Positions 8,545 to 63,625 of a stretch of 64,000 bases of DNA are shown here, piece by piece. Location: NCBI RefSeq assembly GCF_003790525.1, contig NZ_CP033635.1; one strand, 5' to 3'. Origin of the DNA: Escherichia coli (GTDB taxonomy: Bacteria > Pseudomonadota > Gammaproteobacteria > Enterobacterales > Enterobacteriaceae). The number at the start of each line of letters is the position of its first letter. Positions within the stretch are counted from its first letter, which is position 1. The notes under the pieces are model-generated. The model saw only the letters and a list, made by a program, of their open reading frames with translations. It did not search any database and was not told where the DNA came from. The position numbers and the translations under genes were made by a program.

Positions 8545-10787
<2,243 letters not shown>

Positions 10788-10800
10788 TTCCGGTCTCCTG

Positions 10801-11556: not shown

Positions 11557-11650
11557 CTCAATGCCTGCTCATCAAAAAATTGTTCCAGAAGTGTAACAGA
11601 TTGGGCGTCGATGCCCTAGATTTCTACCCGGCTTAACTACCCCCAATGGG

Positions 11651-13078: not shown

Positions 13079-13196
13079 AACGCCTCCTGACGCAACAACT
13101 TACCCGCACAAAATAGAATTGTGCTGTACAAACGTCCAGTTTGAAAGAAGTTTCCTGCGAGGCGCTACGCAAAACGATCGTTAATTTTCATTATTT

Positions 13197-13234
13197 TATC
13201 CCACAATATGAGATGGAGTTTATATTGTGGGATA
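13197..13234. promoter_or_regulatory. 13-bp perfect inverted repeat, candidate IclR-type operator
   Basis: TATCCCACAATAT (13197-13209), then a 12-nt spacer, then ATATTGTGGGATA (13222-13234). It lies about 60 nt upstream of the IclR-family start codon. A degenerate third half-site, TTATGTGGAAC, sits near 13258. Confidence 0.55.
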
Positions 13235-13294
13235 TATCACCTTTTCCCCACGTCATTATGTGGAACACTTCAGCAATATCATCAGGAGAAACGT

Positions 13295-14062: not shown

Positions 14063-14085
14063 ACCATGATTAAAGGAAACGACTA

Positions 14086-15709: not shown

Positions 15710-15733
15710 CTGATAAATAAGGATATAAAAGCA

Positions 15734-16708: not shown

Positions 16709-16724
16709 ACCTGAGGTACGGTTG

Positions 16725-17231
16725 ATGAACACAAAACAGTCTGTTGCTCAACTCGCCGTACCGCACCGCAAGCGCCTTTCATCAACGATGGTGGTGGCGC
16801 TGTTACTTTGTGTGGTTGCTGGCGCGGTGATGATTAATGCCGCTGATTTTCCAGCAACTGCCATTGAAACGGATCCCGGTGCAAGTGCCTTCCCTACCTT
16901 CTATGCCTGTGCCCTGATTGTGCTCGCTGTCTTGCTGGTGATACGCGATCTTTTGCAGGCAAAACCAGCCTCTTGCGCCAACGCACAGGAAAAACCGGCA
17001 TTCAGGAAAACGGCAACAGGAATTGCGGCAACCGCGTTTTATATTGTGACGATGAGCTACTGCGGTTATCTCATTACTACTCCTGTTTTCCTCATCGTCA
17101 TTATGACGTTGATGGGCTACAGGCGATGGGTACTCACACCGGGTATTGCGCTGCTGTTAACGGCAATCCTCTGGTTGCTGTTTGTCGAAGCGTTACAGGT
17201 GCCATTGCCTGTCGGCACATTTTTCGAATAA
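16725..17231 (+). CDS. Tripartite tricarboxylate transporter small membrane subunit (TctB family)
   Basis: About 168 aa with 4 predicted TM helices, sitting between the TctC- and TctA-type genes. The ORF track starts at TTG 16722; the adjacent ATG at 16725 is more likely. Confidence 0.75.
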   Translation: MNTKQSVAQLAVPHRKRLSSTMVVALLLCVVAGAVMINAADFPATAIETDPGASAFPTFYACALIVLAVLLVIRDLLQAKPASCANAQEKPAFRKTATGIAATAFYIVTMSYCGYLITTPVFLIVIMTLMGYRRWVLTPGIALLLTAILWLLFVEALQVPLPVGTFFE

Positions 17232-17243
17232 CAGGGGCCAGCA

Positions 17244-18734
17244 ATGTTTGAAAGTGAACTTTTAACTCAGGGTTTTTCGACATTACTCAATAATCCTCAG
17301 GCGCTGCTGTTTGCCACTTTTGGGGTGATGCTGGGTATTGTGATTGGCGCTTTGCCTGGTCTGACAGCGACCATGGGTGTGGCGATTTTGCTGCCTTTCA
17401 CCTACGGCATGGAGCCTGTTTCTGGCTTGTTGATGATTTGCGGCGTCTTTTTTGGTGGCGTCTACGGTGGTTCTATCACCGCAATTTTGCTCAAAATTCC
17501 CGGAACGCCTGCCGCCGCAGCCACCGCTATTGATGGTTATGAGCTGACGAAACAGGGAAAAGCAGGGCTGGCATTGAGTGCCGCCACGTTCTCTTCCTTT
17601 AGTGGCGGAACGCTCAGCATTATCGTGCTGATGTTTCTCTCTCCGGTACTTGCCAGTTGGGCGCTGAAATTTAGTGCCTCGGAGTCCTTCGCCCTGGCAA
17701 CCTTCGGACTGAGCATTATTGCCAGTATTTCCGGTGAGTCACTGATTAAAGGGCTGATTGCCGGGGTTGGCGGATTGCTGATCGCAACGATAGGCCTTGA
17801 TCCAATGGGCGGTTTTCCACGGTTTACAGGTGGATTTGTGGAGCTGATGAATGTGCCATTTATCCCGGTGATGATTGGTTTATTTGCTGCTTCAGAAGCA
17901 TTCCGCTCTATGGAGCAAAACCAGCAAATTCGTCAGGGGGCGAAGGTGGCTATCGGCAGTCTGTTACTGCCCTGGCAAACACTACGCCGCATTGCATTAA
18001 CCATTTTGCGCTCATCAGGATTAGGGGTTTTTATCGGCATGATCCCCGGTGCGGGGGCGGATATTGCAGCTTTTGTTGCCTATAACGAAACTCGTCGTTT
18101 CAGTAAGACACCAGAAAACTTTGGTAAGGGTGAAATTAAAGCTGTGGCCTCCTGTGAGGCAGGCGCGAATGGCTGCACCGGTGGCGCATTGTTACCTATG
18201 CTGACGCTGGGGATCCCTGGCGATGCGGTAACCGCCATCATGCTGGGCGCGTTAACGTTACAGGGAATGCAACCAGGCCCGCTGATGTTTACCGACCACG
18301 GCGATATGGTTTATACACTGTTTGTCGGCATGATCTTCTGTTACTTCATGCTACTAGTTCTTGGACTGCTCTCTTTGAAAGTCATCGGTAATGTGGTGAA
18401 AATTCCCGGCAATATTCTCACACCGATGATCCTCGCACTTTGTGTGGTCGGGACTTATGCGTTGAACAATAGCCTGTTTGATGTTGGCATTATGCTGATT
18501 GCAGGCGTGGTGGGCTATTTCATGCAGAAAGGAGGATATCCGGCATCACCCGTAGTGCTGGCATTGATTATGGGGCCAATGGCGGAAAGTAATTTTCGCC
18601 GTGCGCTGTCGCTTTCTGGTGGGTCACTCGACTTTCTGTATACCCGACCGATAACTCTGGCATTGCTGACTCTGGCAGCCTTTACGCTACTGACGCCAAT
18701 AATCCGCAAAATAATGCGTTTACGGCGTCAATAA
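17244..18734 (+). CDS. Tripartite tricarboxylate transporter large permease (TctA family)
   Basis: 496-aa polytopic membrane protein with the GALPGLTATMGVAILLPFT and GIPGDAVTA motifs typical of TctA. Confidence 0.88.
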   Translation: MFESELLTQGFSTLLNNPQALLFATFGVMLGIVIGALPGLTATMGVAILLPFTYGMEPVSGLLMICGVFFGGVYGGSITAILLKIPGTPAAAATAIDGYELTKQGKAGLALSAATFSSFSGGTLSIIVLMFLSPVLASWALKFSASESFALATFGLSIIASISGESLIKGLIAGVGGLLIATIGLDPMGGFPRFTGGFVELMNVPFIPVMIGLFAASEAFRSMEQNQQIRQGAKVAIGSLLLPWQTLRRIALTILRSSGLGVFIGMIPGAGADIAAFVAYNETRRFSKTPENFGKGEIKAVASCEAGANGCTGGALLPMLTLGIPGDAVTAIMLGALTLQGMQPGPLMFTDHGDMVYTLFVGMIFCYFMLLVLGLLSLKVIGNVVKIPGNILTPMILALCVVGTYALNNSLFDVGIMLIAGVVGYFMQKGGYPASPVVLALIMGPMAESNFRRALSLSGGSLDFLYTRPITLALLTLAAFTLLTPIIRKIMRLRRQ

Positions 18735-20859: not shown

Positions 20860-21528
20860 ATGACGCAATCCATTTTTCAGGCTCAACCCTTTGAATTACC
20901 TTTTGATCCGCGCACAACTGCACTGGTCATGATCGACATGCAGCGTGACTTTGTCGAAGCAGGGGGCTTCGGTGAGGCACTGGGCAATGATGTTTCACTG
21001 GTACGCACGGCTATCGCACCATGTACAGAGGTGCTGGCAGCCGCACGTCAAAAAGGAATTATGGTTATTCATACTCGTGAAGGCCATCGTGCAGACTTAA
21101 GCGACTGCCCGCCAGCCAAACTGACGCGCGGCGGAAAAACCTTTATTGGTGAACCAGGACCGATGGGACGCATTCTGGTCAGAGGTGAAGCAGGTCATGA
21201 CATCATTCCTGAACTGTACCCGGTGGCAGGCGAACCGGTGATTGATAAGCCTGGCAAAGGCGCGTTTTATCAAACCGACTTACATCTGATTTTGCAAAAC
21301 CACGGTATCAAGACGCTGATAGTTTGTGGTGTTACAACCGAAGTTTGCGTAACCACCACCGTGCGCGAAGCAAATGATCGTGGCTATGAATGCATTATCC
21401 CGGAAGATTGTGTCGGCTCCTATTTCCCGGAATTCCAGAAATACGCCCTCGAGATGATCAAAGCACAAGGTGCCATTTTCGGTTGGGTTACTGATTCCAA
21501 AGCCATTATTGCAGGCCTGGAAGGCTAA
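20860..21528 (+). CDS. Isochorismatase-like cysteine amidohydrolase (RutB / biuret-hydrolase / N-carbamoylsarcosine-amidase type)
   Basis: 222 aa. The catalytic triad context is present: ALVMIDMQRDF (Asp), KPGKGAF (Lys), LIVCGVTTEVCV (Cys). The C-terminal GAIFGWVTD resembles the RutB FFGWVSD. AGGAG lies 8 nt upstream. Confidence 0.85.
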   Translation: MTQSIFQAQPFELPFDPRTTALVMIDMQRDFVEAGGFGEALGNDVSLVRTAIAPCTEVLAAARQKGIMVIHTREGHRADLSDCPPAKLTRGGKTFIGEPGPMGRILVRGEAGHDIIPELYPVAGEPVIDKPGKGAFYQTDLHLILQNHGIKTLIVCGVTTEVCVTTTVREANDRGYECIIPEDCVGSYFPEFQKYALEMIKAQGAIFGWVTDSKAIIAGLEG

Positions 21529-21533
21529 CACCG

Positions 21534-22394
21534 ATGGTACAGGTTACGCTTTGCGCATCGTCGTTGGGATATCTTTTCCCGCAGAATGAAACGCAAGATT
21601 TACGTCTACATAGCGCTTTTAAACATGCGGTAAATCTGTATTCAGACGCGGGAACATTCATCACTCTGTTGTGTGCGCAAACGTATCTGAATCTCCCTGA
21701 TGCAGCCAGAGTCTGGCTACCTGAATGTTGGGACTGGCGAAGAGAGATTGCCCATTCAGATCCCATTCAGTTAACCCCAGGCTTACTGCGGACACCTCGA
21801 TTTTGTGTGGCGCTCGAAAACGCAACGCTCTGGCAGTCGCCATTTGTGGGGGGAATGCTGACACTTGAGGCATTCCCTTTGGTTTTCCAGCACTACCCAA
21901 CGATGGCATCGCAACGGCTTTTATTTTGTCTGGAACATAACGTTCAAAGCACATTGCACCTGCCGGATAGTCTCACGCACCAGGGATTAGCGATTATGGA
22001 GCATCCAGATGCGCTGGAACGCCAGGTGCCACAACTGATCGGCTTTGGTAAAGGCTTAACGCCCGATGGAGATGACTATTTGTTGGGCTATCTGGCAGCA
22101 CTCTGGTTATGGCAACTCCCTGCACCACTTGCCGATCATCAATACCGGTTGCAGCAGGTAATTGATCAACATGCGCACAACACCACGGATATCAGTCGTC
22201 ATTATCTGGAGCGTGCGCTTCAGGGACATTTTTCAGAACCGATTTGCCAGTTACTCGCACAACTGGTTGGGAGTGCATCGGCAATGACAATCGCATCCTG
22301 TGCAGAACAGGTCATGCAATTTGGCGCAACGTCAGGAGTAGATTGCCTTGCAGGAATGCTGCATGGCTTTCGAACCCTGAACACCATAAATTGA
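21534..22394 (+). CDS. DUF2877-family protein (YlbF-like)
   Basis: 286 aa with the GKGLTPDGDDYLLGYLAAL and TTDISRHYL motifs I associate with YlbF/DUF2877. It starts 5 nt after the hydrolase stop. Confidence 0.75.
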   Translation: MVQVTLCASSLGYLFPQNETQDLRLHSAFKHAVNLYSDAGTFITLLCAQTYLNLPDAARVWLPECWDWRREIAHSDPIQLTPGLLRTPRFCVALENATLWQSPFVGGMLTLEAFPLVFQHYPTMASQRLLFCLEHNVQSTLHLPDSLTHQGLAIMEHPDALERQVPQLIGFGKGLTPDGDDYLLGYLAALWLWQLPAPLADHQYRLQQVIDQHAHNTTDISRHYLERALQGHFSEPICQLLAQLVGSASAMTIASCAEQVMQFGATSGVDCLAGMLHGFRTLNTIN

Positions 22395-22488
22395 TTTCAA
22401 CCTTTTCTCCCGTAGCCCGTTTATGGGGCTACACGGGGATGCTTTGCCCGAATTTTGCTATCGGGCGGAATGAAACAGGCGTAACAGC

Positions 22489-24048
22489 ATGAAAGTTAAA
22501 TATAAAGTTTTCAGTAATCTTTATCAGGACTCAGTTTCTCTGATGCAGATTTCCGCGCAAATCAGCAAGTTGCCCGGTATTCAACAGGCCTCGGTCGTCA
22601 TGGGAACACCCAATAATCTCGAGCAATTGAGCGATGCGGGTCTGGGTAACGAAATCAACGCCAGTCCCAATGATTTAGTGATTGCAGTCATGGGTGAAGA
22701 AGATATTTGCAATGAAGCACTGGTACTGGCCCAGCAACGTCTGACCAGCAAACCCGATGATGAAACGGATAGTGGCATTAAAACACCGGAAAAGGTCAGC
22801 CTGGAAATGGCACTGGAAGCCGAGCCCGAAGCCAACCTGGCACTCATTTCTGTACCGGGAGACTACGCCGCCGCCGAAGCAATTAAAGCGTTAAACCTCG
22901 GAATGAACGTGATGATGTTCAGCGATAACGTCAGTATCGTGCAGGAAAAATCCATCAAAACGCTTGCCCGAGAACGTCAGCGCATCGTAATGGGACCTGA
23001 CTGTGGAACCGCCATTGTTAACGGCATTCCGTTAGGCTTCGCTAATGTGGTGAAACGCGGAGCAATTGGTGTTATTGGCGCGTCAGGCACCGGGCTACAG
23101 GAAGTGACTTGCCGAATCGACCAGCTCGGAGCGGGTATTTCTCAGGCGTTGGGAACAGGCGGACATGATCTCAGTGAAGAGATTGGTGGAATATCGATGC
23201 TCTTCGCTTTAGATGCGCTGGCGCAAGACGATGAAACTCGCGTGATTGTGCTTATTTCAAAACCGCCTTCACCGATCGTTGCCCGGACTATTCTGGAGCG
23301 TGCCGAGGCTTGTGGAAAACCCGTGGTGGTGAATTTCCTCGGTGCGAATCCGCATGATCTGGCACGTCCCAATATCACCGCGGCCACCACACTTGCCAGC
23401 GCCGCAAATATCGCCGTGGCGTTACTGAATGATCAACCACTTCCGACTATCGAGACCGAAATTTCCTGCGACGATCTCACAATGTTACAAAACGCCTGCC
23501 AGCGCCTGCCAGCCCATCGCCAGGCGATACGCGGTGTTTTCGCCGGAGGAACCTTCTGCTACGAAGCGCAACTTATCTGCCAACAAAAGGGATTCAGCGC
23601 AGCCTCCAATACGCCAGTTGCGGGTAATCGTGCTCTGGCAAATATCTGGCAAAGCGAAGATCACACGTTGATCGATATGGGCGACGATGATTTCACCCGT
23701 GGCAAACCGCATCCAATGATCGACCCGACTCTGCGCAATCAACGTCTGCTCAACGAACTCAACGACTCACACACTGCCGTCGTGTTATTCGACCTGGTAC
23801 TTGGTTATGGCGCTTCCACGACGCCTGCCAGCGAATTACTGGACCAACTTTCACACATCGACATGAATAACGCACCGTTGCTGATTGCGCACGTTTGCGG
23901 AACGGAAGCTGATCCGCAAATACGCAGTCAGCAGATAAGCGCACTACAAAATGCAGGGGTCATCATCGCCAGCAGCAATGCACAGGCGGCGTTATGGGCC
24001 AGCACCGTTGCACAGACTCAGTTGCAGAAAAAGGGGCTAAACGCATGA
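22489..24048 (+). CDS. FdrA-family protein (succinyl-CoA-synthetase-alpha-like, CoA-ligase fold)
   Basis: 519 aa with long collinear similarity to my recollection of E. coli FdrA: QDSVSLMQIS, NVMMFSDNV, MGPDCGT, IGVIGASGTGLQE, GDDDFTRGKPHPMIDPTLRNQ. Confidence 0.88.
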   Translation: MKVKYKVFSNLYQDSVSLMQISAQISKLPGIQQASVVMGTPNNLEQLSDAGLGNEINASPNDLVIAVMGEEDICNEALVLAQQRLTSKPDDETDSGIKTPEKVSLEMALEAEPEANLALISVPGDYAAAEAIKALNLGMNVMMFSDNVSIVQEKSIKTLARERQRIVMGPDCGTAIVNGIPLGFANVVKRGAIGVIGASGTGLQEVTCRIDQLGAGISQALGTGGHDLSEEIGGISMLFALDALAQDDETRVIVLISKPPSPIVARTILERAEACGKPVVVNFLGANPHDLARPNITAATTLASAANIAVALLNDQPLPTIETEISCDDLTMLQNACQRLPAHRQAIRGVFAGGTFCYEAQLICQQKGFSAASNTPVAGNRALANIWQSEDHTLIDMGDDDFTRGKPHPMIDPTLRNQRLLNELNDSHTAVVLFDLVLGYGASTTPASELLDQLSHIDMNNAPLLIAHVCGTEADPQIRSQQISALQNAGVIIASSNAQAALWASTVAQTQLQKKGLNA

Positions 24049-25469
24049 ATACCTTATTTAATCAGCCTTTGAAGGTTGTGAACGCGGGACTACACAGTTT
24101 TGCTGACAATATTCAACATGCCGGGGGAAGCGCAATTGCACTCAACTGGCAGCCACCAGCACAAGGCGATATTGACGCTGGATTGGATCTGGCATCGTTG
24201 CTACGTCATCCCCTGGTAGAAAATGCCAACCAAATCGCCATGACACGTTATCTCGAAGCACAGCCCGTGCTGGTGGATGTCATGCTCGCTAAAGAGGCCA
24301 TTCCAGAAATGGCTGAACAAAAACGTATTTTGCACTCTGGCCCGCCGATTGCCTGGGAAGAGATGTGTGGTCCGGTAAAAGGGGCGATTATTGGTGCCAT
24401 GCTGTACGAAGGTTGGGCCACCAGCCAGCAAGACGCTGAAAACCAAATAAACGCAGGCGAAATCGACCTTGCCCCTTGTCATCATTATCACGCGGTTGGC
24501 CCAATGGCAGGCATCATCAGCCCGTCGATGCCGTTATGGGTGGTAGAAAACAAAACCAACGGCCACCGTACTTTTAGCAATTTCAATGAAGGTCTGGGTA
24601 AGGTTCTCCGTTTTGGCGCCAATAACGATGAAGTTCTCAATCGTCTGGCCTGGATGCGCGATGAACTGGCGCCGGCAATGAAAGCAGCAATCGCACAACA
24701 CGGCGAGCTGGAACTCAAGCCATTAATGGCGCAGGCGCTGCATATGGGGGATGAAGTTCATAACCGCAATGCTGCCGCTACCGGTTTGCTGATTAAGCGC
24801 CTGCTCCCGGCATTGCTGGCCTGCTCTCTTCCACAGGAACATATCCAGCGCGTCGTGGCATTTATCACCGGTAACGATCACTTCTTCCTCAATCTTTCGA
24901 TGGCCGCCTGTAAAGCAATGATGGATGCCGCCGCCAATGTACCGTTCAGTTCAATGGTTACGGTGATGGCGCGTAACGGGGTGAATTTTGGTATTCGGCT
25001 TTCCGGTACTGGCGATCGCTGGTTCCAGGCTCCTGCCAATGCCGTTGAAGGTCTGTTCTTCCCCGGATTTGGCGTCGACGATGCCGCTGCTGACCTGGGT
25101 GATAGCGCAATTACTGAAACCGCAGGTGTGGGTGGCTTCGCGATGGCGTCGTCTCCGGCGATCGTCAAATTTGTGGGAGGCACCCCTGCCGATGCCACCA
25201 ATAACAGCCGTCGGATGCAAGCCGTCACCCTCGGCGGTAACCCCGCATTTACACTTCCAGCCCTCAATTTTGCCCCCACCGCAGCAGGGATTGATGCGCG
25301 TAAAGTGACCGATCGCGGCATTTTACCGGTCATCAATACGGGTATCGCCCACAAACAAGCGGGGGTCGGGCAAATTGGTGCCGGGATCACCACTGCGCCG
25401 ATGGCCTGTTTTGTCGCCGCTGTACGTGCACTGGCGGAGATCGTCGCAAAGGAGAACCATCATGGTTAA
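24045..25469 (+). CDS. DUF1116-family protein (YlbE-like)
   Basis: The ATG at 24045 overlaps the FdrA-like TGA (an ATGA junction), giving about 474 aa starting MNTLFNQPLKVVNAGL... It is the conserved partner of FdrA in fdrA-ylbE-ylbF-ybcF clusters. The ORF-track start at 23994 is probably an over-extension. Confidence 0.78.
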   Translation: MNTLFNQPLKVVNAGLHSFADNIQHAGGSAIALNWQPPAQGDIDAGLDLASLLRHPLVENANQIAMTRYLEAQPVLVDVMLAKEAIPEMAEQKRILHSGPPIAWEEMCGPVKGAIIGAMLYEGWATSQQDAENQINAGEIDLAPCHHYHAVGPMAGIISPSMPLWVVENKTNGHRTFSNFNEGLGKVLRFGANNDEVLNRLAWMRDELAPAMKAAIAQHGELELKPLMAQALHMGDEVHNRNAAATGLLIKRLLPALLACSLPQEHIQRVVAFITGNDHFFLNLSMAACKAMMDAAANVPFSSMVTVMARNGVNFGIRLSGTGDRWFQAPANAVEGLFFPGFGVDDAAADLGDSAITETAGVGGFAMASSPAIVKFVGGTPADATNNSRRMQAVTLGGNPAFTLPALNFAPTAAGIDARKVTDRGILPVINTGIAHKQAGVGQIGAGITTAPMACFVAAVRALAEIVAKENHHG

Positions 25470-26418
25470 GCCACTGGCTGTCGTCGCGGTTGGCGGCAAT
25501 GCGCTCATTCAGGACGAGCAACGCAATAGTATTCCCGATCAATATGTTGCAGTGATGGAAAGCGTGCAGCATATCGTTGATATGGTTGAAGCCGGATGGG
25601 ACCTGGTGCTAACCCACGGTAATGGCCCGCAGGTGGGCTTTATTCTGCGCCGCTCTGAACTCGCCAGTAACGAAGTTTCTCCGGTTCCACTTGATTACGC
25701 CGTGGGTGATACACAAGGTGCAATTGGCTACATGTTCCAGAAAGCACTGCATAACGAATTGGCTCGCCGTGGCATAAACAAACCGGTAATTGCCCTGGTG
25801 ACACAAACGCGAGTCAGCCCACATGACGATGCTTTCGCCAGCCCCAGTAAACCAATTGGCGCGTTTCTCGATGAAGCAACGGCCCAACAACGCCAACAAC
25901 AACTCGGCTGGACGCTGATGGAGGACGCCGGGCGTGGTTGGCGGCGTACAGTTCCCTCTCCTGCCCCACTGGAAGTTATTGAGCACGACACCATCGCTCA
26001 CCTGGTGCGCCAGGGATATCTGGTTATTGCCTGCGGCGGCGGCGGTATTCCGGTGGTGCGAGACGGACAACAACTGAAAGGTGTAGAAGCCGTGATCGAT
26101 AAAGATCTGGCCTCCGCGCTGCTCGCCAGTCAGTTAGGCGCAGATCTGCTGGTGATCCCCACCGGTGTAGAAAAAGTGGCGATTAACTTTGGTACACCAC
26201 AACAACAGTGGCTCGACGCTATCAGCGTTGCCGAAGCGCAAACGCTGTTGCGGGAAGGTCAGTTTGGTGTCGGCAGTATGCAACCCAAAGTGGAAGCCAT
26301 TGTTGATTTCATCAATGCCAGCCAGCAACAAGGCAAACAGGCCAGCGGCCTGATTACTTCACCGCAAACCATAAAAGCAGCCCTGGCGCATCAGAGCGGT
26401 ACATGGATAACCCTTTAA
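25462..26418 (+). CDS. Carbamate kinase
   Basis: The ATG at 25462 follows GGAGA (25451-25455) and overlaps the upstream stop by 8 nt, giving 318 aa. Carries AVVAVGGNAL and THGNGPQVG, the carbamate-kinase signature motifs, plus CGGGGIPV. Confidence 0.92.
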   Translation: MVKPLAVVAVGGNALIQDEQRNSIPDQYVAVMESVQHIVDMVEAGWDLVLTHGNGPQVGFILRRSELASNEVSPVPLDYAVGDTQGAIGYMFQKALHNELARRGINKPVIALVTQTRVSPHDDAFASPSKPIGAFLDEATAQQRQQQLGWTLMEDAGRGWRRTVPSPAPLEVIEHDTIAHLVRQGYLVIACGGGGIPVVRDGQQLKGVEAVIDKDLASALLASQLGADLLVIPTGVEKVAINFGTPQQQWLDAISVAEAQTLLREGQFGVGSMQPKVEAIVDFINASQQQGKQASGLITSPQTIKAALAHQSGTWITL

Positions 26419-26434
26419 TTCTCTGGAGAACACA

Positions 26435-26824
26435 ATGACTACAACGCTTTTAGCCGTTAACGGAACGCTGATGCGCGGCCTGGAACTCAACCCAAATATG
26501 CAAAAAGCGGGCGGTATTTTTGTCCGTGAAGACCGAACTGACGCCCATTACCGGTTGTGGAGTATTAATGATCGCCATCCGGGAATGATTCGCGTGAATG
26601 AAGGAGGAACACACGTCGACGTAGAAATTTGGCAATTACCGCTGGCCAGTTTTGCCGCTCTGTTAATGAGCGAACCCGCTGGGCTGGCAATTGGCAAAAT
26701 CAAACTTGCCGATGGTAGCGAAGTGCTGGGCGTACTGGCAGAAAACTGGCTGACCGAAGGCCAACGGGAAATTACAGAACTGGGTAGCTGGCGCAAATAC
26801 ACCGGGCATTTTCATACTGTGTAA
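26435..26824 (+). CDS. Stand-alone allophanate-hydrolase C-terminal-like / gamma-glutamylcyclotransferase-fold domain protein
   Basis: 129 aa. LAVNGTLMRGLELN...YRLW...PGMIRV..GG..VDVEIWQLP...F..L....P.GLAIGKIKLADGSEVLGVL...ELGSWRKY parallels the C-terminal domain of allophanate hydrolases (from memory). No amidase-signature domain is present. Confidence 0.6.
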   Translation: MTTTLLAVNGTLMRGLELNPNMQKAGGIFVREDRTDAHYRLWSINDRHPGMIRVNEGGTHVDVEIWQLPLASFAALLMSEPAGLAIGKIKLADGSEVLGVLAENWLTEGQREITELGSWRKYTGHFHTV

Positions 26825-26849
26825 CGCGCATTTATAAAGGGAACATACT

Positions 26850-28073
26850 ATGCGTAAAAAAGAAGAGAATCTGAATACGGCATCAGGATTGCGTATTGCC
26901 ATGATTTTGCTGGGTATTGCCGTCACACCTGTGCTGTTGTCATCCTCAAGCCTCGGCAATCAACTTTCCAGCGGCAGTTTAATTAGCGTCGTATTGTTAG
27001 GCGGCGTCATTCTGACCTTACTTTCAGCCATCACCATTAGCGTGGGAGAAAAAGCCCGCCTACCAACGTATGGCATTGTGAAATATTCGTTTGGCGAAAA
27101 AGGGGCCATCGCCATTAACATTTTGATGGCGATAAGTCTGTTCGGCTGGATTGCCGTTACCGCCAATATGTTTGGTCATTCGGTACATGACTTACTGGCT
27201 CAACATGGACTGGAAGTTCCACTGGCACTGTTAGTGGCGGCTGGCTGTGTCATTTTTGTCGCCTCTACGGCATTTGGCTTTGCCGTTCTGGGAAAAATTG
27301 CCCAGGTTGCCGTGCCGGTTATCGCGCTGGTGCTGTGTTACATCCTCTATGTGGCAACCCATACCGAAGTGGCAGTACCAGCGGCGATTGTGGAGATGAA
27401 TACAGGTGTCGCCGTTTCCACCGTTGTTGGCACCATTATTGTGCTGGTTGCCACACTGCCTGATTTCGGTAGTTTTGTGCATAACCGCAAACATGCGCTG
27501 ATTGCCGCAGGCGTGACGTTTCTGGTTGCCTACCCTCTGCTCTACTGGGCGGGTGCAACGCCGAGCGCCATTAGTGGTCAGGGATCTTTACTGGGTGCGA
27601 TGGCGGTATTCGGTGCGGTTCTGCCTGCGGCGCTGTTGTTGATTTTCGCCTGCGTCACCGGTAACGCGGGCAATATGTTCCAGGGCACGCTGGTGGTTTC
27701 CACACTGCTTACCCGCTTTCCCAAATGGCAGATTACCGTGGCGCTGGGTATCCTTTCCGCCATCGTAGGCAGTATGGATATTATGGCGTGGTTTATTCCG
27801 TTTCTGCTGTTCCTGGGTATCGCCACGCCACCCGTTGCCGGAATTTATATCGCTGACTTTTTCTTTTATCGCCGTAATGGCTATCAAGAGTCAGTGTTAG
27901 CCCAGGAGTCACAGATTAAAGTGCTGACATTCGCAGCATGGATCATAGGCGCAGCGGTTGGCTTTATGACCGTAAAAGGCTTATTCACCCTGACGACGAT
28001 CCCTTCGGTAGACTCGATTCTGGTGGCATGTATCGCTTATGCGATTCTCAGTCGGGCAAGTCAACACCGCTAA
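26850..28073 (+). CDS. NCS1-family permease, CodB (cytosine/purine/uracil/allantoin)-like
   Basis: 407 aa with about 12 TM helices. YSFGEKGA...LFGWIAVTANMFG and PPVAGIYIADFFFYRR align with the CodB SFGVKGS...QVGWFGVGVAMF and PPVGGVIIADYLMNRR (from memory). Confidence 0.8.
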   Translation: MRKKEENLNTASGLRIAMILLGIAVTPVLLSSSSLGNQLSSGSLISVVLLGGVILTLLSAITISVGEKARLPTYGIVKYSFGEKGAIAINILMAISLFGWIAVTANMFGHSVHDLLAQHGLEVPLALLVAAGCVIFVASTAFGFAVLGKIAQVAVPVIALVLCYILYVATHTEVAVPAAIVEMNTGVAVSTVVGTIIVLVATLPDFGSFVHNRKHALIAAGVTFLVAYPLLYWAGATPSAISGQGSLLGAMAVFGAVLPAALLLIFACVTGNAGNMFQGTLVVSTLLTRFPKWQITVALGILSAIVGSMDIMAWFIPFLLFLGIATPPVAGIYIADFFFYRRNGYQESVLAQESQIKVLTFAAWIIGAAVGFMTVKGLFTLTTIPSVDSILVACIAYAILSRASQHR

Positions 28074-28101
28074 TTCCTGGGTATACTCAGGCAATGATTA
28101 C

Positions 28102-28125
28102 GGCTGAATCTGGAGAGATTCAGCC
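28102..28125 (+). other. 10-bp perfect stem-loop between the permease and LysR genes
   Basis: GGCTGAATCT (28102-28111), loop GGAG, AGATTCAGCC (28116-28125). Only a weak U-tract (ACTTTACC) follows. It ends 25 nt before the LysR ATG. Confidence 0.5.
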
Positions 28126-28150
28126 ACTTTACCACTGACCAGGAAGCCTT

Positions 28151-29047
28151 ATGTTCATCTCAGACGAAACGCTTCGTGTTATTCATCTGGTCGCCAGACA
28201 CCAGAGCATTACCACCGCAGCCGAGCAGTTAAATAAAGTCCCTTCCGCCATCAGTTACACCATCAAGAAAGCGGAAGAGAGCCTGGGCGTTGAACTGTTC
28301 ATTCGTAAGGGACGCTATATTGAATTATCGCCAGCGGGAAGTTACTTCATCGAACATAGCAAAACTATTCTTGGCGACCTGGAAGCATTAAAGCGCAACA
28401 CAGTGCTGATTCACGATGGTATTGAGCGTGAACTGACAATTGCGGTAAACAATATTATTCCTGGTGATTTGCTGGTGGCATTTATTCGAGATTTTGAACG
28501 GCAATTCACATCAACAACACTGACGGTAGATCTTGAGGTATACAACGGCTGCTGGGATGCGCTGTACAGTAAGCGTGCCGATCTGGTCTACGGTGCTCCT
28601 CATGCAGTGCCAAGCAGTGAAGGCATCATTAGCGAACCGGTCGGACAAATGGAATGGGATTTTGTCGTCAGCCCACTCCACCCACTGGCAGCGAAGCGGC
28701 ATCCATTAGAAAACAGTGAATTGCGTCATTATCCAGCGGTTTGTATCCGCGATACCTCCGTTAACTTCCCCCCGATGCAAGCCTGGTTGTTGGAAGGACA
28801 AAAACCCATTTTTGTTCCTGACTTCGCTACGGCAATCGCCTTAATAGAACAAAACGTCGGTATTGGTTATATTCCACATCATCTGGCATTGCCGTTATTG
28901 AACAGCGGTAAATTGCTTAAAAAGCCAATGCGCGAACATAAACACGCCACCAAGTTATTTCTTGCCGCTCGTTCCGATGGTATGGGCAAAGCCTGTCAGT
29001 GGTGCATAGAATATTTAAGAAATCCGCAATTAATTTTCTGTTCCTGA
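28151..29047 (+). CDS. LysR-family transcriptional regulator
   Basis: 298 aa with an N-terminal LysR HTH (LRVIHLVARHQSITTAAEQLNKVPSAISYTIKKAEESLGVELF) and a C-terminal substrate-binding domain. Confidence 0.9.
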   Translation: MFISDETLRVIHLVARHQSITTAAEQLNKVPSAISYTIKKAEESLGVELFIRKGRYIELSPAGSYFIEHSKTILGDLEALKRNTVLIHDGIERELTIAVNNIIPGDLLVAFIRDFERQFTSTTLTVDLEVYNGCWDALYSKRADLVYGAPHAVPSSEGIISEPVGQMEWDFVVSPLHPLAAKRHPLENSELRHYPAVCIRDTSVNFPPMQAWLLEGQKPIFVPDFATAIALIEQNVGIGYIPHHLALPLLNSGKLLKKPMREHKHATKLFLAARSDGMGKACQWCIEYLRNPQLIFCS

Positions 29048-40149: not shown

Positions 40150-41040
40150 ATGGATGCAAAACAAACGCGGCAGGGCGTATTACTCGCTCTTGCCGCTTAT
40201 TTTATTTGGGGTATTGCGCCAGCGTACTTCAAGCTGATTTACTACGTGCCCGCCGATGAGATCCTGACGCATCGCGTGATCTGGTCGTTTTTCTTTATGG
40301 TGGTGCTGATGAGCATTTGCCGCCAGTGGTCCTATTTAAAAACGCTGATTCAGACGCCACAGAAAATTTTTATGCTGGCAGTCTCTGCCGTGCTGATTGG
40401 TGGCAACTGGCTACTGTTTATCTGGGCGGTGAACAATCACCATATGCTGGAAGCGAGCCTTGGTTACTTTATTAACCCACTGGTGAACATTGTGCTGGGG
40501 ATGATTTTCCTCGGCGAGCGATTCCGCCGGATGCAATGGCTGGCGGTGATTCTGGCGATATGTGGCGTGTTGGTTCAGTTGTGGACTTTTGGTTCACTGC
40601 CGATTATCGCGCTGGGGCTGGCGTTTAGTTTTGCCTTCTACGGCCTGGTACGCAAGAAGATTGCTGTTGAAGCGCAAACCGGCATGTTAATCGAAACTAT
40701 GTGGTTGCTGCCCGTGGCGGCGATTTACCTGTTTGCTATTGCCGACAGCTCAACCAGCCATATGGGGCAAAACCCGATGTCGCTGAATTTACTGCTGATC
40801 GCCGCCGGTATTGTCACTACCGTACCGCTGTTGTGTTTTACTGCGGCTGCGACACGCCTGCGTCTCTCAACGTTAGGCTTTTTTCAGTACATTGGCCCGA
40901 CGCTGATGTTCCTGCTGGCTGTGACGTTTTATGGTGAAAAACCGGGTGCCGATAAGATGGTAACCTTCGCCTTTATTTGGGTGGCGCTGGCAATTTTTGT
41001 GATGGATGCGATTTATACGCAGCGTAGAACGTCCAAATAA
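40150..41040 (+). CDS. rarD: EamA/DMT-family membrane protein RarD
   Basis: 296 aa with 10 TM helices, starting MDAKQTRQGVLLALAAYFIWGIAPAYFK. Confidence 0.95.
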   Translation: MDAKQTRQGVLLALAAYFIWGIAPAYFKLIYYVPADEILTHRVIWSFFFMVVLMSICRQWSYLKTLIQTPQKIFMLAVSAVLIGGNWLLFIWAVNNHHMLEASLGYFINPLVNIVLGMIFLGERFRRMQWLAVILAICGVLVQLWTFGSLPIIALGLAFSFAFYGLVRKKIAVEAQTGMLIETMWLLPVAAIYLFAIADSSTSHMGQNPMSLNLLLIAAGIVTTVPLLCFTAAATRLRLSTLGFFQYIGPTLMFLLAVTFYGEKPGADKMVTFAFIWVALAIFVMDAIYTQRRTSK

Positions 41041-41055
41041 AAAATAAATATATTC

Positions 41056-41095
41056 TGAAAAAATATGCCGACTCTTGCATGAGAGTGGGCATATT
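41056..41095 (-). terminator. Orphan minus-strand Rho-independent terminator just after the rarD stop
   Basis: The stem is AATATGCCgACTCT (41062-41075) / AGAGTgGGCATATT (41082-41095), 13 bp with one G-G mismatch and a 6-nt loop. The only U-run lies on the minus-strand side (plus-strand AAAAAA at 41056-41061). Confidence 0.5.
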
Positions 41096-41349
41096 GCCAT
41101 GCTGACAGGAGACTCACATAAGGAAAGGCAGAATTTCCAGACGTCGTTGTATATTTTCATTTGCTTTAATAAATTTCATTTTTGGTAAATTCAGCATTAT
41201 GTTATTAGCGATGAGCAAGACCAATCATTAACCAAGTTCTCTTCAGAATGTAATGAAAAATGTGAAGTGCATTTCTTTTTTAAAATTTTTTACCCTATTA
41301 TTTCTTATCAAATTAACATTGCCCTTAATTATAAGAAAGGAGAATATAA

Positions 41350-42198
41350 ATGAACAACATATTAGGCTCATCAATTAATATGCCCTGTACACTTTTCGAA
41401 ACTATTACTTTATTCGATGATTTTTCTGCTGATGATATGCAGTATGGGGATATGGAAGAACAAGATTTTCTCTCACTCGGCTTAAGCGACATCTCTGCAA
41501 AAGTTGATCCTTACCGCCTCATTAAATACCATTTTCCTGGGCCGAATTCTACTTATGGTGCTTTTAGTGTTCCAACTTCTGGAACAAAAATATCACAAAG
41601 TGAATGTATTGATATTTTATTTGCAGAAATGAAAGATCTGGCAAAAATGTTTTCCTTTTTTGGACAATACAAAACACTCATCCAGGATCTGATTGATCAT
41701 TTTAGATATGGAAATGGCAACAGTTTCCATAGCCAGGAATTGAACTTATCTTTTCATGAACGAATAAACAAATATGATTATAATAGCCCAATACGTGTAA
41801 TCAAAGAATGTATCGAAAATGATATTTCTTCAACACCTACGATAGGATACCGGCCTCTTCTCCTACAAAAGATTAAGACCGAATTACTTTCATCAAGACT
41901 AAATAAATTCAATGATTTTAAAGATAATTTTAATGGCATGGGAATCAGCATTCATGATATCTCAGCTCAAAAAATATCTCTTTTAAATTTTCAAAAATAT
42001 CCTATGGGCTGGAGCGCTACCATTCATTTCATAGCACAAGACCACTTTGGTTTGGATGTGACTGATATAAAAAACAAGATTTACAACAAGTATAGATTTT
42101 TTCGCATATGGTTCTTTTTACAACGGCATAAAGACTTTGCTTTCAAACCTTTTTTCACCAATTTTAACACTATCGAAAGAATCGAAAATTATCTATGA
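41350..42198 (+). CDS. Hypothetical protein, probably DUF3289 family; no signal peptide
   Basis: 282-aa ORF in an AT-rich islet, with AAGGAG 7 nt upstream. The motifs FNGMGISIHD, QDHFGLD, FRFFRIWFFLQR and FKPFFTNF resemble DUF3289 proteins as I remember them (unverified). Confidence 0.7.
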   Translation: MNNILGSSINMPCTLFETITLFDDFSADDMQYGDMEEQDFLSLGLSDISAKVDPYRLIKYHFPGPNSTYGAFSVPTSGTKISQSECIDILFAEMKDLAKMFSFFGQYKTLIQDLIDHFRYGNGNSFHSQELNLSFHERINKYDYNSPIRVIKECIENDISSTPTIGYRPLLLQKIKTELLSSRLNKFNDFKDNFNGMGISIHDISAQKISLLNFQKYPMGWSATIHFIAQDHFGLDVTDIKNKIYNKYRFFRIWFFLQRHKDFAFKPFFTNFNTIERIENYL

Positions 42199-42692
42199 AA
42201 AGAAAACTCCAGAAAATTATATTATATTTATTTCTTCTATGCTGCATCTATAATTTATGGACATTGCGTCCTGTACAGATTTTGTATACATACTCTGATG
42301 CTGGCAATTCAGTCTTTCTGGTCGTTGATCATCTGCCATGGACTGACAGCGATAAAATAAATTGGTATCTGAAGCATCAGAATGAAATTAAAAATCAACA
42401 CCCCCTACCAGAAGGTAGTTGGCATACCTGGTATGTTATTGATATCGGTAATGGCTTCACTGACTATAAAAAATATATCGAAGGGCCGTATGAAGATCTC
42501 TACTGTTTCCCGACGATTAAGAGCAATGATAATTGCATCGTAAAAAACTATTTAATGGTTATTAATGAATATCCTTACCGTAATACTCATTTTTTTATTG
42601 CTGATAACAATGAGTATCAACTAACCCAGGAAAATAAGATAGAGCGAGTGTTCAACCCGCATGACTTTGAAAAAGACAATTTTCAGCAATAA
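42195..42692 (+). CDS. Hypothetical membrane-anchored protein, probably DUF943 family
   Basis: 165 aa. The ATG overlaps the upstream TGA (ATGA at 42195-42198). It has an N-terminal signal-anchor, KIILYLFLLCCIYNLWTL. LPWTDSDKINWYLKHQ resembles the DUF943 FPFTDKGKINWWLKN (from memory). Confidence 0.65.
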   Translation: MKRKLQKIILYLFLLCCIYNLWTLRPVQILYTYSDAGNSVFLVVDHLPWTDSDKINWYLKHQNEIKNQHPLPEGSWHTWYVIDIGNGFTDYKKYIEGPYEDLYCFPTIKSNDNCIVKNYLMVINEYPYRNTHFFIADNNEYQLTQENKIERVFNPHDFEKDNFQQ

Positions 42693-42720
42693 GCCGGATA
42701 AAGAACAATCTTTACCCGGC
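42693..42720. terminator. Stem-loop between the convergent DUF943-like gene and corA
   Basis: GCCGGaTAAAGA (42693-42704), loop ACAA, TCTTTAcCCGGC (42709-42720), with one A-C mismatch. Flanks are AT-rich on both sides. Confidence 0.55.
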
Positions 42721-42727
42721 ATTTATA

Positions 42728-43678
42728 TTACAACCAGTTCTTCCGCTTAAAGTACAGATACGGTGCCAGGCCCGCGAGGATCATAAAGATAATCGCGCCA
42801 GGGTAGCCGAAGCTCCACTTCAGTTCCGGCATAAACTCAAAGTTCATCCCGTAGCTGGAAGCGACCAGCGTCGGTGGCAGGAACACCACGGATACCACCG
42901 AGAAGATTTTGATGATGCGGTTCTGCTCGATATTGATAAAGCCCATCGCCGCCTGCATCAGGAAGTTCACCTTCTGGAACAGGGATTCGTTATGCGGCAG
43001 CAGGGATTCGATATCTCGCAGGATTTCACGCGCCTGCTCCAGTTGCCCACCCGGTAAGCGTGCTTTACGTACCAGGAAGTTGAGCGCGCGCTGGGTATCC
43101 ATCAGACACAGGCGAACTTTCCAGCCGATATCTTCCAGTTCCGCCAGCGTGGAGAGCGCCTCGTCGTACTCATCGCCCTGATGCCCTTCCATAATTACCC
43201 GGCTCAACTGCTCCAGGTCACTGTAGATATTTTCAATTTCATCCGCCAACTGTTCGATTTTGGTTTCGAACAGATCCAGCAACAGCTCGTAGGCGTTACC
43301 GTCCACCATCGACTGGCTACGGGCACGCATACGATACAGACGAAAAGCGGGCAGTTCACGCTCACGCAGAGTAAACAGACGACCATCACGAATGGTAAAT
43401 GCCACAGTGGAGTTACCGGCGTGATCTTCCGCATCTTCAAAGAAGAAGAAGGAGTGAATATGCAGGCCGTCATCGTCTTCAAAGAAACGTGCCGATGCTT
43501 CGATGTCTTCCAGTTCCGGGCGGGTTGCCAGGCTCTGGCCAAGTTCAGATTGTACGCGCAGTCGCTCGTCGTCGTCCGGTTCGACAAGATCAATCCATAC
43601 TGCATTTACAAGGGGTTGTGACTCTTCGACTTCCAGCCGGGTCAGTCGGTTATTTTCCAGTTGAAATGCGCTCAGCAT
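42728..43678 (-). CDS. corA: Magnesium/cobalt/nickel transporter CorA
   Basis: The Met at 43678 ([17 protein letters not shown]...) gives 316 aa. The YGMNF signature is present near the C-terminus. Confidence 0.97.
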
Positions 43679-44894: not shown

Positions 44895-45797
44895 ATGAAA
44901 AAAAGGCTCGCAACGTTATTTTTATTAACGTGTCTGGGATCATCATCCGCCTATGCGGATAACGCTTTGATTTTACAAACTGATTTTAGCCTGAAAGATG
45001 GTGCCGTCTCGGCGATGAAAGGGGTCGCATTCGGCGTTGACCATAATCTTAAAATCTTTGATTTAACACACGAAATTCCACCGTATAACATCTGGGAAGG
45101 CGCTTATCGCCTGTATCAGACTGCCAGTTACTGGCCGCAAGGTTCGGTGTTTGTTAGCGTGGTCGATCCGGGCGTAGGCACTGACCGTAAATCGGTAGTG
45201 CTGAAAACCAAAAACGGTCAATACTTCGTTTCACCAGATAACGGTACGCTCACTTTGGTGGCACAAACTCTGGGTATTGATAGCGTCCGAGAAATCGACG
45301 AAAAAGCTAACCGCCTGAAAGGTTCTGAAAAGTCATATACCTTCCACGGTCGTGACGTGTATGCCTACACCGGTGCGCGTCTGGCTTCCGGGGCGATTAC
45401 GTTCGAACAGGTGGGGCCAGAGCTTCCTGCAAAAGTTGTCGAACTTTCTTATCAGAAAGCAAAAGCAACAAAAGGTGAAGTGAAGGGCAATATCCCGATT
45501 CTCGATATTCAGTACGGCAACGTCTGGAGCAATATCAGCGACGAGTTGCTGAATCAGGCAGGAATCAAACTCAACGACACGTTGTGTGTGACCATTTCCG
45601 AAGGTTCCCAGCAAAAATACGCAGGGAAAATGCCATATGTCGCAAGCTTCGGCGATGTGCCGGAAGGCCAGCCGATGGTGTATCTGAACAGCTTATTGAA
45701 TGTTTCCGTGGCGCTGAATATGGATAATTTTGCGCAGAAACATCAGGTTGCGTCTGGTGCTGACTGGAATATTGATGTGAAGAAGTGCGCTAAGTAA
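44895..45797 (+). CDS. SAM hydroxide adenosyltransferase / SAM hydrolase family (DUF62) protein with an N-terminal Sec signal peptide
   Basis: 300 aa. The signal peptide is MKKRLATLFLLTCLGSSSAYA|DN. The mature part carries DUF62 hallmarks: LQTDFSLKDGAVSAMKGV, DLTHEIPPYNI, VDPGVGTDRK, VSPDNGTLTLV. Confidence 0.8.
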   Translation: MKKRLATLFLLTCLGSSSAYADNALILQTDFSLKDGAVSAMKGVAFGVDHNLKIFDLTHEIPPYNIWEGAYRLYQTASYWPQGSVFVSVVDPGVGTDRKSVVLKTKNGQYFVSPDNGTLTLVAQTLGIDSVREIDEKANRLKGSEKSYTFHGRDVYAYTGARLASGAITFEQVGPELPAKVVELSYQKAKATKGEVKGNIPILDIQYGNVWSNISDELLNQAGIKLNDTLCVTISEGSQQKYAGKMPYVASFGDVPEGQPMVYLNSLLNVSVALNMDNFAQKHQVASGADWNIDVKKCAK

Positions 45798-51475: not shown

Positions 51476-51944
51476 TATGGATTGCCTGTAAAGTTCATCG
51501 CTTTCTGCTTTCTATCATCGCAGGAGAAGACGTAAAAGCAAGCGTTTAGCGACTCTTTATGAAGTCTGAAAAGTGAGGAAATGCTGCGAGTATAACGCTT
51601 ACACGTGGCGATTTATGTTTTGCTGGCAGTTTCGTGATCGGCACCTCGCGCCAGGATGGCTTTATGCACTATCGCAACGTGGTTTGTTTGTTGTCTTGTT
51701 CGTTGTTCTTATCGTCGGCATGGGGATGTCGGCTTTCCGCGCCTGAACATAATATTTACCAGAAACAGGGAAAAGGCGTGGTGTACCTGCGTCCTTATGA
51801 AAAGACCAATCTTTCGCTATATAGAGATATTATTATTCCGTTGACGGATGAATCATGCCGTAACGCAGCCGCAGACGGGCAAACTTTGAAGCCCTGACCC
51901 CATACCGCTATACTGCCGCCATCACTTAAAAACAGGATACAACA

Positions 51945-59376: not shown

Positions 59377-59584
59377 TAAAAAAACGCCTGCTCTTATTAC
59401 GGAGCAGGCGTTAAAACAGGTCTGTATGACAACAAGTGGGTGCTTCACTCAACGTTGTGTCCATGGTGTCTGATGAGGCATAAGCGACATCTGTCAGTGG
59501 ACGATAAGCACCGTAAACGGCTCTGCGTCATTCCGGAGTTTATGAGGCACTAAGGCGAACATAAGAGATGGAATGAGCATCTAC
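59377..59584 (-). ncRNA. glmZ: GlmZ small RNA (SraJ/RyiA), activator of glmS translation
   Basis: The minus strand reads GTAGATGCTCATTCCATCTCTTATGTTCGCCTTAGTGCCTCATAAACTCCGG...ACGCCTGCTCcgtaataaGAGCAGGCGTTTTTTTT, which matches the GlmZ sequence I recall. The terminator stem is 59384-59393 / 59402-59411 with a U-run at 59377-59383. Its location between hemY and aslA agrees with K-12. Confidence 0.9.
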
Positions 59585-63188: not shown

Positions 63189-63265
63189 TGGTCGGCGAGA
63201 GAGGATTCGAACCTCCGACCCACTGGTCCCAAACCAGTTGCGCTACCAAGCTGCGCTACTCGCCG
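63189..63265 (-). tRNA. proM: tRNA-Pro (UGG)
   Basis: The reverse complement gives CGGCGAGTAGCGCAGCTTGGTAGCGCAACTGGTTTGGGACCAGTGGGTCGGAGGTTCGAATCCTCTCTCGCCGACCA. 77 nt with anticodon-loop TTTGGGA and an encoded CCA. Confidence 0.97.
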
Positions 63266-63307
63266 AAATACTGCTTTTTGAATTTTTAGTTCAATTCTTT
63301 AAAGTCG

Positions 63308-63394
63308 TGGTGCGAGGGGGGGGACTTGAACCCCCACGTCCGTAAGGACACTAACACCTGAAGCTAGCGCGTCTACCAATTCCGCCACCTTCGC
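63308..63394 (-). tRNA. leuT: tRNA-Leu (CAG)
   Basis: The reverse complement gives GCGAAGGTGGCGGAATTGGTAGACGCGCTAGCTTCAGGTGTTAGTGTCCTTACGGACGTGGGGGTTCAAGTCCCCCCCCTCGCACCA. 87 nt, class II with a long variable arm. Confidence 0.97.
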
Positions 63395-63414
63395 ATTGTC
63401 ACAACTTCTAATAA

Positions 63415-63491
63415 TGGGGTGGCTAATGGGATTCGAACCCACGACAACTGGAATCACAATCCAGGGCTCTACCAACTGAGCTATAGCCACC
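63415..63491 (-). tRNA. hisR: tRNA-His (GUG)
   Basis: The reverse complement gives GGTGGCTATAGCTCAGTTGGTAGAGCCCTGGATTGTGATTCCAGTTGTCGTGGGTTCGAATCCCATTAGCCACCCCA. It includes the His-specific extra 5' G(-1). Confidence 0.97.
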
Positions 63492-63548
63492 ACTACAAAT
63501 CTTGTTACGCGGTATTACTACCACCGCAGCTCAAGCGCCGGGACTAAA

Positions 63549-63625
<77 letters not shown>

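Follow-up and report, generated by a model that had tools for sequence, protein, structure and literature searches.

A DUF3289/DUF943 gene pair in the rarD–corA gap of Escherichia coli SMS-3-5, probably an orphan type VI secretion effector with its immunity protein

The window analysed here is the whole stretch of 64,000 nucleotides (nt) and its source is Escherichia coli SMS-3-5; positions 40500–43300 correspond to NC_010498.1 4285147–4282347 at 100% identity. Its AT-rich islet lies in the gap bounded by the stop codons of rarD (41040) and corA (42728) and carries two open reading frames, ORF1 and ORF2, which encode a DUF3289 protein and a DUF943 protein, respectively. The islet is, with high probability, an orphan antibacterial effector of a type VI secretion system (T6SS) together with its cognate immunity protein, of a kind already published for these two families. 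The features of the locus are as follows, with the basis of each assignment in brackets.

41041–41124, no strand: intergenic DNA downstream of rarD, common to K-12-type strains and outside the imported block (K-12 match and blastn)
41125–41186, plus strand: 5' remnant of yigG, its start codon gone via a 38-nt deletion (alignment and blastn)
41187–41349, plus strand: imported AT-rich leader upstream of ORF1, with a Shine–Dalgarno sequence (blastn and sequence)
41350–42198, plus strand: ORF1, 282 residues, stand-alone toxin module of the DUF3289/YPO3983 family (hidden Markov models)
42195–42692, plus strand: ORF2, 165 residues, DUF943 immunity protein (Pfam, hydropathy, structural model, alignment)
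42693–42720, no strand: hairpin with a 12-bp stem between the convergent ORF2 and corA stops, likely a shared or bidirectional terminator (terminator scan)
42728–43678, minus strand: corA, flanking core gene (blastn and annotation)

The G+C content of 41041–42727 is 0.329 (64-kb mean 0.519, standard deviation 0.034), the lowest among all 1687-nt segments of the 64 kb; the next non-overlapping minimum is 0.466. The first-pass annotation of this DNA, made from the sequence alone, had pointed to a sharp drop between the two stops, which is borne out, and its hand-counted figure of about 30% G+C for 41341–41400 is exactly 30% on recount. G+C at third codon positions is 0.29 in ORF1 and 0.36 in ORF2 versus 0.62 in rarD. 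The 84 nt that directly follow rarD are 96–99% identical to K-12 strains, and blastn aligns window 40150–41124 to positions 1610–2584 of comparison locus L084. The Shine–Dalgarno sequence AAGGAG (41337–41342) lies 7 nt ahead of the ORF1 ATG. The ATGA overlap by which the two ORFs were said to be linked is present at the junction ...CTATGAAA.

ORF1 is matched over almost its whole length by Pfam DUF3289 (PF11692; E 7.7e-83, 278.6 bits, cut-off 25; residues 10–278, model positions 2–270 of 272) and by NCBIfam TIGR03034 (YPO3983 family; E 1e-118, 395.7 bits, cut-off 156.45). It has no signal peptide, transmembrane segment or PAAR domain: the maximum Kyte–Doolittle hydropathy over 19 residues (KD19) is 1.17, versus a usual transmembrane level of about 1.6. 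A PIX delivery domain is unlikely in this protein, judging from the domain layout, because the DUF3289 model fills residues 10–278 of 282 and because the same full model follows PAAR in a homologue (locus L062). The AlphaFold2 model of ORF1, built on 21 aligned sequences, reached a predicted local distance difference test score (pLDDT) of 75.6 and a predicted template modelling score of 0.72. Its best structural match is a solved T6SS effector domain. The chain matched in the structure comparison is also recovered by phmmer (1.6e-5), and the motifs DHFGLD, FRxWFxLQ and KPFxT are common to ORF1 and the aligned region of that chain. ORF1 is predicted to be a T6SS cargo effector acting in the periplasm of the target cell. 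A further nearly invariant motif, H-F-R-Y-G-N-G, occupies residues 117–123 (window 41698–41718).

ORF2 belongs to DUF943 (PF06092; E 8.2e-28, 97.3 bits, cut-off 25; residues 3–152). Behind its N-terminus, MKRKLQK, comes a hydrophobic stretch (residues 8–26, KD19 1.59), with a modelled helix at residues 2–22, and the protein contains 5 Trp and 14 Tyr in 165 residues. Cys104 and Cys114 are invariant in the family alignment, which fits a periplasmic domain. ORF2 is thus predicted to consist of an inner-membrane anchor (approximately residues 7–26) and a periplasmic domain, and to be translationally coupled to ORF1 via the ATGA overlap. The AlphaFold2 model of ORF2 is poor (pLDDT 61), and a Foldseek search with this low-confidence model returned noise only. 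The first-pass annotation had named DUF3289 for ORF1 and DUF943 for ORF2, and had described ORF1 as free of signal peptide and transmembrane segments and ORF2 as an N-terminally anchored protein with a Trp/Tyr-rich domain; the family searches, hydropathy, modelled helix and residue counts agree with it on every one of these points.

Its further remark that both families lack a known function has been overtaken, since a DUF3289/DUF943 toxin–immunity pair has been published (PMC11148199). T6EC1 of Yersinia pseudotuberculosis IP32881 is a PAAR-DUF3289 protein encoded inside a T6SS operon (Geller 2024, PMC11148199). Directed to the periplasm of E. coli it is toxic and the cells round up, and they are rescued by the DUF943 protein encoded downstream (T6IC1; transmembrane helix 7–26, the rest periplasmic). 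A colicin M-like action on lipid II was proposed for T6EC1 from the Foldseek likeness to PaeM (4G76); according to the authors, the mechanism and the dependence on T6SS are unproven (PMC11148199). ORF1/ORF2 share with T6EC1/T6IC1 the two Pfam families, the gene order and, in both immunity proteins, the N-terminal transmembrane helix followed by a periplasmic domain. The difference is that in T6EC1 DUF3289 is fused to PAAR within a T6SS operon, whereas ORF1 is the toxin module alone, located in a core-genome gap of a strain without detectable T6SS. A periplasmic action of DUF3289 proteins on the cell wall is regarded as supported by the published experiments on this homologue.

An orphan member of the family is known from Aeromonas jandaei DSM 7311 (WP_042032936.1), where it is secreted by T6SS and kills kin without the effector–immunity pair (Fridman 2025, PMC12135965). 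Like ORF1, it is encoded away from T6SS clusters. It differs in that the host T6SS is active and in that its immunity protein is an unrelated protein of 95 residues that has a signal peptide plus three helices spanning the membrane, not DUF943. DUF3289 has also been described as a payload behind PIX (bioRxiv 10.1101/2023.07.16.549128), in combination with M23 beside a VgrG (PMC10763514) and, in T6SS loci of Klebsiella, in linkage with DUF943 (PMC12469244). These PIX-, PAAR- and M23-linked effectors of Enterobacterales contain the same module as ORF1, as a polymorphic payload that is often an orphan with a downstream immunity gene; they differ by the N-terminal PIX (140 residues), PAAR or M23 domain (the last in L076 and L078), for which ORF1 is too short. 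Another close system is the C-terminal domain of BtpeA (Bfe5) with BtpiA of Bacteroides fragilis (PDB 9JDI, 9JG8, 9JG9), which differs in being a domain of a 608-residue effector (PDB 9JG8), described in one paper as PAAR-tipped, and in belonging to another phylum. A study of the E. coli rarD–corA locus was not found in the literature.

Homologues were surveyed in one genome per species of the GTDB, which gave 77 loci in which ORFs were called and clustered. By their titles the loci belong to Enterobacterales, except for three short E. coli-like contigs (81–84% identical to ORF1) that sit in metagenome bins titled Alistipes, Clostridium and Mucilaginibacter. A toxin homologue is present in 73 loci. 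A gene of the DUF943 cluster lies directly 3' of 66 of the 73 full-length toxin ORFs, with an overlap of 1 or 4 nt in 32 cases. Immunity ORFs total 112. For 32 of these no toxin gene adjoins; among them are series of additional immunity genes in L035, L047–L049 and L063. Toxin fragments number 19. Pairs can also form tandem arrays, with five pairs in L065 (Tatumella terrea, 8337–17000: one truncated and four full-length DUF3289-DUF943 pairs, then two extra immunity genes). The pairing, orphan immunity genes, fragments and arrays are the usual signature of loci for polymorphic effectors and their immunity proteins.

Linkage to T6SS parts is seen in the homologues and not at the SMS-3-5 locus. 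A PAAR-DUF3289 fusion is confirmed by Pfam in L062, where the payload is the whole 272-position DUF3289 model; proteins of the same class (395–420 residues) occur in L054, L059, L060 and L070, and fusions of 746 residues with a weak M23 match in L076 and L078. The hcp gene adjoins the pair upstream in L053 and L042 and downstream in L037, L073 and L075, and lies nearby in L033. The majority of the remaining loci, those of ORF1's closest relatives among them, are gaps between or beside housekeeping genes (fadH-lsrK, polB-rapA, valS, malPQ, a chemoreceptor gene), and the homologues there are orphans like the SMS-3-5 pair. The initial suggestion of an orphan, horizontally acquired T6SS effector/immunity or polymorphic toxin/immunity pair is supported by the literature, the structural match, the pairing with DUF943 and the PAAR and hcp links.

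The same annotation offered an anti-phage module as an alternative, and a classical toxin–antitoxin addiction module could be considered beside it, because the islet is a small cassette of two tightly coupled genes, acquired horizontally and placed at a variable site. Neither protein has a match in PADLOC-DB at E <= 1. The neighbourhoods of homologues, proposed as a check, contain the PAAR fusions and hcp neighbours, and otherwise housekeeping genes; defence-island contexts were absent from them. The only toxicity demonstrated in the family came from periplasm-directed toxin, and the partner likewise faces that compartment (PMC11148199), where it would be unable to act on a toxin in the cytoplasm in the manner of a type II antitoxin. 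A defence or addiction function is therefore hardly credible.

Colicin M deserves closer comparison. A fold relationship of the toxin to colicin M (ColM) and PaeM has been proposed in the literature, and the two systems have in common the periplasmic target and the membrane-anchored periplasmic immunity protein (Cmi in the case of colicin M). The pair could accordingly be read as a bacteriocin independent of T6SS: ORF1 would be released and imported as colicin M is, with a helical N-terminal two-thirds for uptake and a conserved C-terminus for killing, and ORF2 would confer Cmi-like immunity. ORF1 resembles PaeM weakly in fold across 153 residues, ORF2 has the topology of Cmi (anchor and periplasmic domain), the toxin target is periplasmic (PMC11148199), and intact genes persist in lineages without T6SS. 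However, the profiles show no similarity, with an hhalign probability of 0.3% for the DUF3289 alignment versus authentic ColM and of 0.2% for the DUF943 alignment versus Cmi. The Pfam scan of ORF1 gave no Colicin_M match at E <= 1, and the ColM catalytic motif DxYD(x5)HR is missing from ORF1 in a regular-expression search whose ColM control was positive at residue 226. The PAAR fusions carry the whole 272-position model, so the N-terminal part would belong to the toxin module and not to an uptake domain. T6SS is present in most islet carriers, and all experimentally tested homologues are T6SS-linked. The bacteriocin explanation is very improbable, and the probability is equally small that E. 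coli strains devoid of T6SS use an ORF1-type protein through colicin M-like import or another route, e.g., vesicles.

Homology to ColM and Cmi at the sequence level was rejected on the hhalign values above, and the label 'colicin M homolog' reflects weak fold similarity only. The sole hhalign match between the toxins aligns the H-F-R-Y-G-N-G motif of ORF1 with H-Y-L-W-G-N-G of ColM (within ColM 118–143) and is not significant (E 0.24). DUF3289 as a lipid II hydrolase of colicin M type is hypothetical; a biochemical demonstration of lipid II cleavage was not found in the literature for any DUF3289 protein.

Selection on the pair was assessed by comparing the SMS-3-5 and O157-type alleles (window 41350–42692 versus L086 2344–3680), using synonymous (dS) and nonsynonymous (dN) divergence:

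ORF1: amino acid identity 84%, dS 0.41, dN/dS 0.19
ORF2: amino acid identity 92%, dS 0.23, dN/dS 0.17
rarD: amino acid identity 99%, dS 0.14, dN/dS 0.04
corA: amino acid identity 100%, dS 0.11, dN/dS 0.00

ORF1 and ORF2 are under purifying selection, and the alleles of the pair either predate the core DNA around them or were separately imported. Allele differences in the toxin cluster in residues 1–205, while residues 205–282 are almost invariant. This distribution suggests that the immunity protein recognises the invariant C-terminal part of the toxin, and the two E. coli alleles may cross-protect.

In K-12 the gene order is rarD-yigG-yigF-corA; the first-pass annotation likewise placed yigG and yigF at this position. 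Strain ES5 has rarD-yigG-yigF followed by a second copy of the last 147 nt of corA, then 186 nt, the pair (with the toxin frameshifted) and corA. O157-type strains carry the same corA' fragment and the pair, and approximately 980 nt of unrelated DNA, which encode two small membrane proteins, replace yigG/yigF; in E. coli ERL06-2497 (L086 1031–2010) these are hydrophobic ORFs, of 104 residues on the minus strand and 128 residues on the plus strand. Atlantibacter subterraneus shows the ES5 architecture with an 80-residue corA fragment, and Salmonella diarizonae has rarD, a split toxin gene, the immunity gene and corA. The rarD–corA gap is a multi-allelic hotspot.

The segment duplicated upstream of the pair in ES5 and O157-type E. 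coli is the last 147 nt of corA (42728–42874), which blastn aligns to L084 3410–3556 (92.5%) and L086 2006–2157. Such corA fragments are annotated elsewhere as 'CorA ... missing N-terminus' pseudogenes. Duplicates of the corA 3' end upstream of the toxin were observed in E. coli ES5 at L084 3410–3556, in O157-type E. coli at L086 2011–2157 and in A. subterraneus at L005 9271–9513, a scar that spans genera. Because this direct repeat flanks the insert, we infer that the block entered by Campbell-type integration through corA homology.

In SMS-3-5 window 41133–41184 corresponds to approximately codons 13–30 of K-12/ES5 yigG (blastn). This yigG stub ends at a deletion junction (...TTTCATTTTTG joined to GTAAATTC), and from 41168 onward the window is 92% identical to the DNA that, in ES5 and an O157-type strain, lies on the right side of corA'. 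What looks like a replacement in SMS-3-5 is thus an insertion, after which yigG, yigF and corA' were deleted at a microhomology. The earlier description of the islet as a replacement of yigG/yigF holds in that both genes are gone here; it does not hold in that a stub of about 60 nt is left and other E. coli carry the pair in addition to yigG/yigF.

The islet is carried at rarD–corA by 2119 of 5426 complete E. coli genomes (approximately 39%; at least 80% coverage of window 40500–43300), including Nissle 1917, CFT073, ATCC 25922 and the O157 lineage. The presence of T6SS was examined by megablast with chimeric queries composed of a window segment and T6SS probes, counting the matching places per record. 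With tssC of T6SS-1/-2, one place was found in SMS-3-5 and in the 24 further records whose islet is 100% identical, and two places in CFT073, Nissle, ABU83972 and ATCC 25922 (islet 99.0% identical). A query of tssC from the aai cluster (T6SS-3) of enteroaggregative E. coli 042 with hcp and vgrG of T6SS-1/-2 again gave one place in SMS-3-5, and three places in strains with a 99.1%-identical islet. In a sample of 60 evenly spaced E. coli records (in five rows a separately matched rarD place was subtracted), tssC of T6SS-1 or T6SS-2 was detected in 24 of 29 carriers and 16 of 31 non-carriers (odds ratio 4.5, Fisher p = 0.014, no phylogenetic correction). The pair and T6SS tend to occur together, and about one carrier in six is without a T6SS. 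T6SS-1 tssF is annotated as frameshifted in CFT073 (L083 29164–30922), and some islet carriers counted as T6SS-positive may have a defective machine.

Several of these results weigh against an effector–immunity role of the pair in SMS-3-5. Neither this strain nor its clonal relatives match any of the probes (three for tssC, two for hcp, two for vgrG), for which CFT073 and Nissle are positive. Its aspV site, where T6SS-2 is located in Sakai, runs directly into yafV, and its metV site, where T6SS-1 is located in CFT073, contains a small phosphotransferase system islet only. SMS-3-5 appears to have no T6SS, within the sensitivity of megablast and with plasmids not inspected individually; nothing usable on T6SS in this strain was found in the literature. 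Therefore, the toxin is probably not deliverable there. Near the islet there is no T6SS gene, and ORF1 has no recognised delivery domain. A promoter scan of the islet gave 7 promoter-like matches versus 8.4 expected from shuffled sequence, so none stands out above chance. The association of carriage with T6SS, too, ignores phylogeny.

The pair could be a silenced (e.g., H-NS-bound) leftover of a T6SS-bearing ancestor, which has no fitness role and will decay. The unmatched T6SS probes in the SMS-3-5 lineage, the AT-rich DNA without a clear promoter and the toxin genes frameshifted or split elsewhere (ES5, S. diarizonae L029, L015), together with the toxin fragments of the survey, would be expected of such a relic. 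But neither ORF is disrupted here or in 25 complete genomes whose islet is 100% identical (these are near-clonal), both genes are under purifying selection across alleles, and 99%-identical alleles are present in CFT073 and Nissle. An orphan immunity gene is selectively valuable where T6SS-positive relatives carry the same toxin. A relic pure and simple is unlikely on balance, though clearly less so than a bacteriocin or a defence module.

Family membership, the fold match, the pairing with DUF943, the T6SS links of homologues, purifying selection, the history of the locus and the unmatched T6SS probes are shown by the results above. The orphan effector–immunity pair could then operate as follows, where delivery, target and current function in SMS-3-5 are what we infer. 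ORF1 would be a complete toxin module, the same as that found behind the PAAR spike in specialised effectors, and it would be harmless in the cytoplasm of its producer because it has no export signal. Where T6SS is present, ORF1 could be loaded as cargo and fired into a neighbouring Gram-negative cell; loading onto Hcp or the spike would be the route, because homologues have hcp neighbours and PAAR fusions. From the periplasm of the target ORF1 would attack the cell wall, the published phenotype being cell rounding and the colicin M-like cleavage of lipid II being a literature proposal. ORF2, anchored in the inner membrane, would bind and block with its periplasmic domain the toxin arriving from sister cells. 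The block presumably entered the corA 3' end by recombination, with the duplicated corA fragment remaining in other lineages, and the SMS-3-5/B2 lineage would afterwards have lost yigG, yigF and the corA fragment via microhomology deletion. In SMS-3-5 itself ORF1 would be an unexpressed or undeliverable passenger, and the pair probably serves as an immunity locus only, against T6SS-positive E. coli with near-identical toxin alleles, if it is not a relic.

Other observations concern the rest of the window and of the SMS-3-5 genome. Between metE and ysgA (20860–29047) lies an eight-gene cluster encoding a LysR regulator, a cytosine permease, an allophanate-hydrolase-related protein, carbamate kinase (arcC), a DUF1116 protein, FdrA, a DUF2877 protein and a cysteine hydrolase. 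This cluster is probably another strain-variable islet, because in K-12 metE adjoins ysgA. A second accessory metabolic islet lies between udp and rmuC (13295–18734) and comprises a tripartite tricarboxylate transporter (three genes), 2-dehydro-3-deoxygalactonokinase, an aldolase and an IclR regulator. Adjoining yigE, 44895–45797 encodes a 300-residue protein of the S-adenosylmethionine (SAM) hydrolase/SAM-dependent halogenase family, the gene for which is also present in ES5. A DKNYY-family pseudogene fragment is annotated between cyaY and lptM (51634–51819). Rfam matches at gathering score, all on the minus strand, are the small RNA Erse (10182–10433, 318.7 bits), GlmZ (59378–59584, 218.4 bits) and four tRNA genes (63192–63625). 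Elsewhere in SMS-3-5 (L001 30186–50000, record 255186–275000) a second flagellar gene set stands beside rayT, with flhA, flhB, fliP/Q/R, fliE–J and flgN/M/A; it is presumably the Flag-2 lateral flagellar cluster.

The locus bears out what has been published on these families, and no new kind of system emerges from it. The use of DUF3289 proteins in the absence of T6SS, if true, would make them a bridge between bacteriocins and T6SS payloads. Carriers without T6SS are a natural test of whether the immunity gene explains the persistence of orphan effector–immunity loci. The pair itself is probably one of the widespread factors by which strains in the gut antagonise each other and resist such attack.

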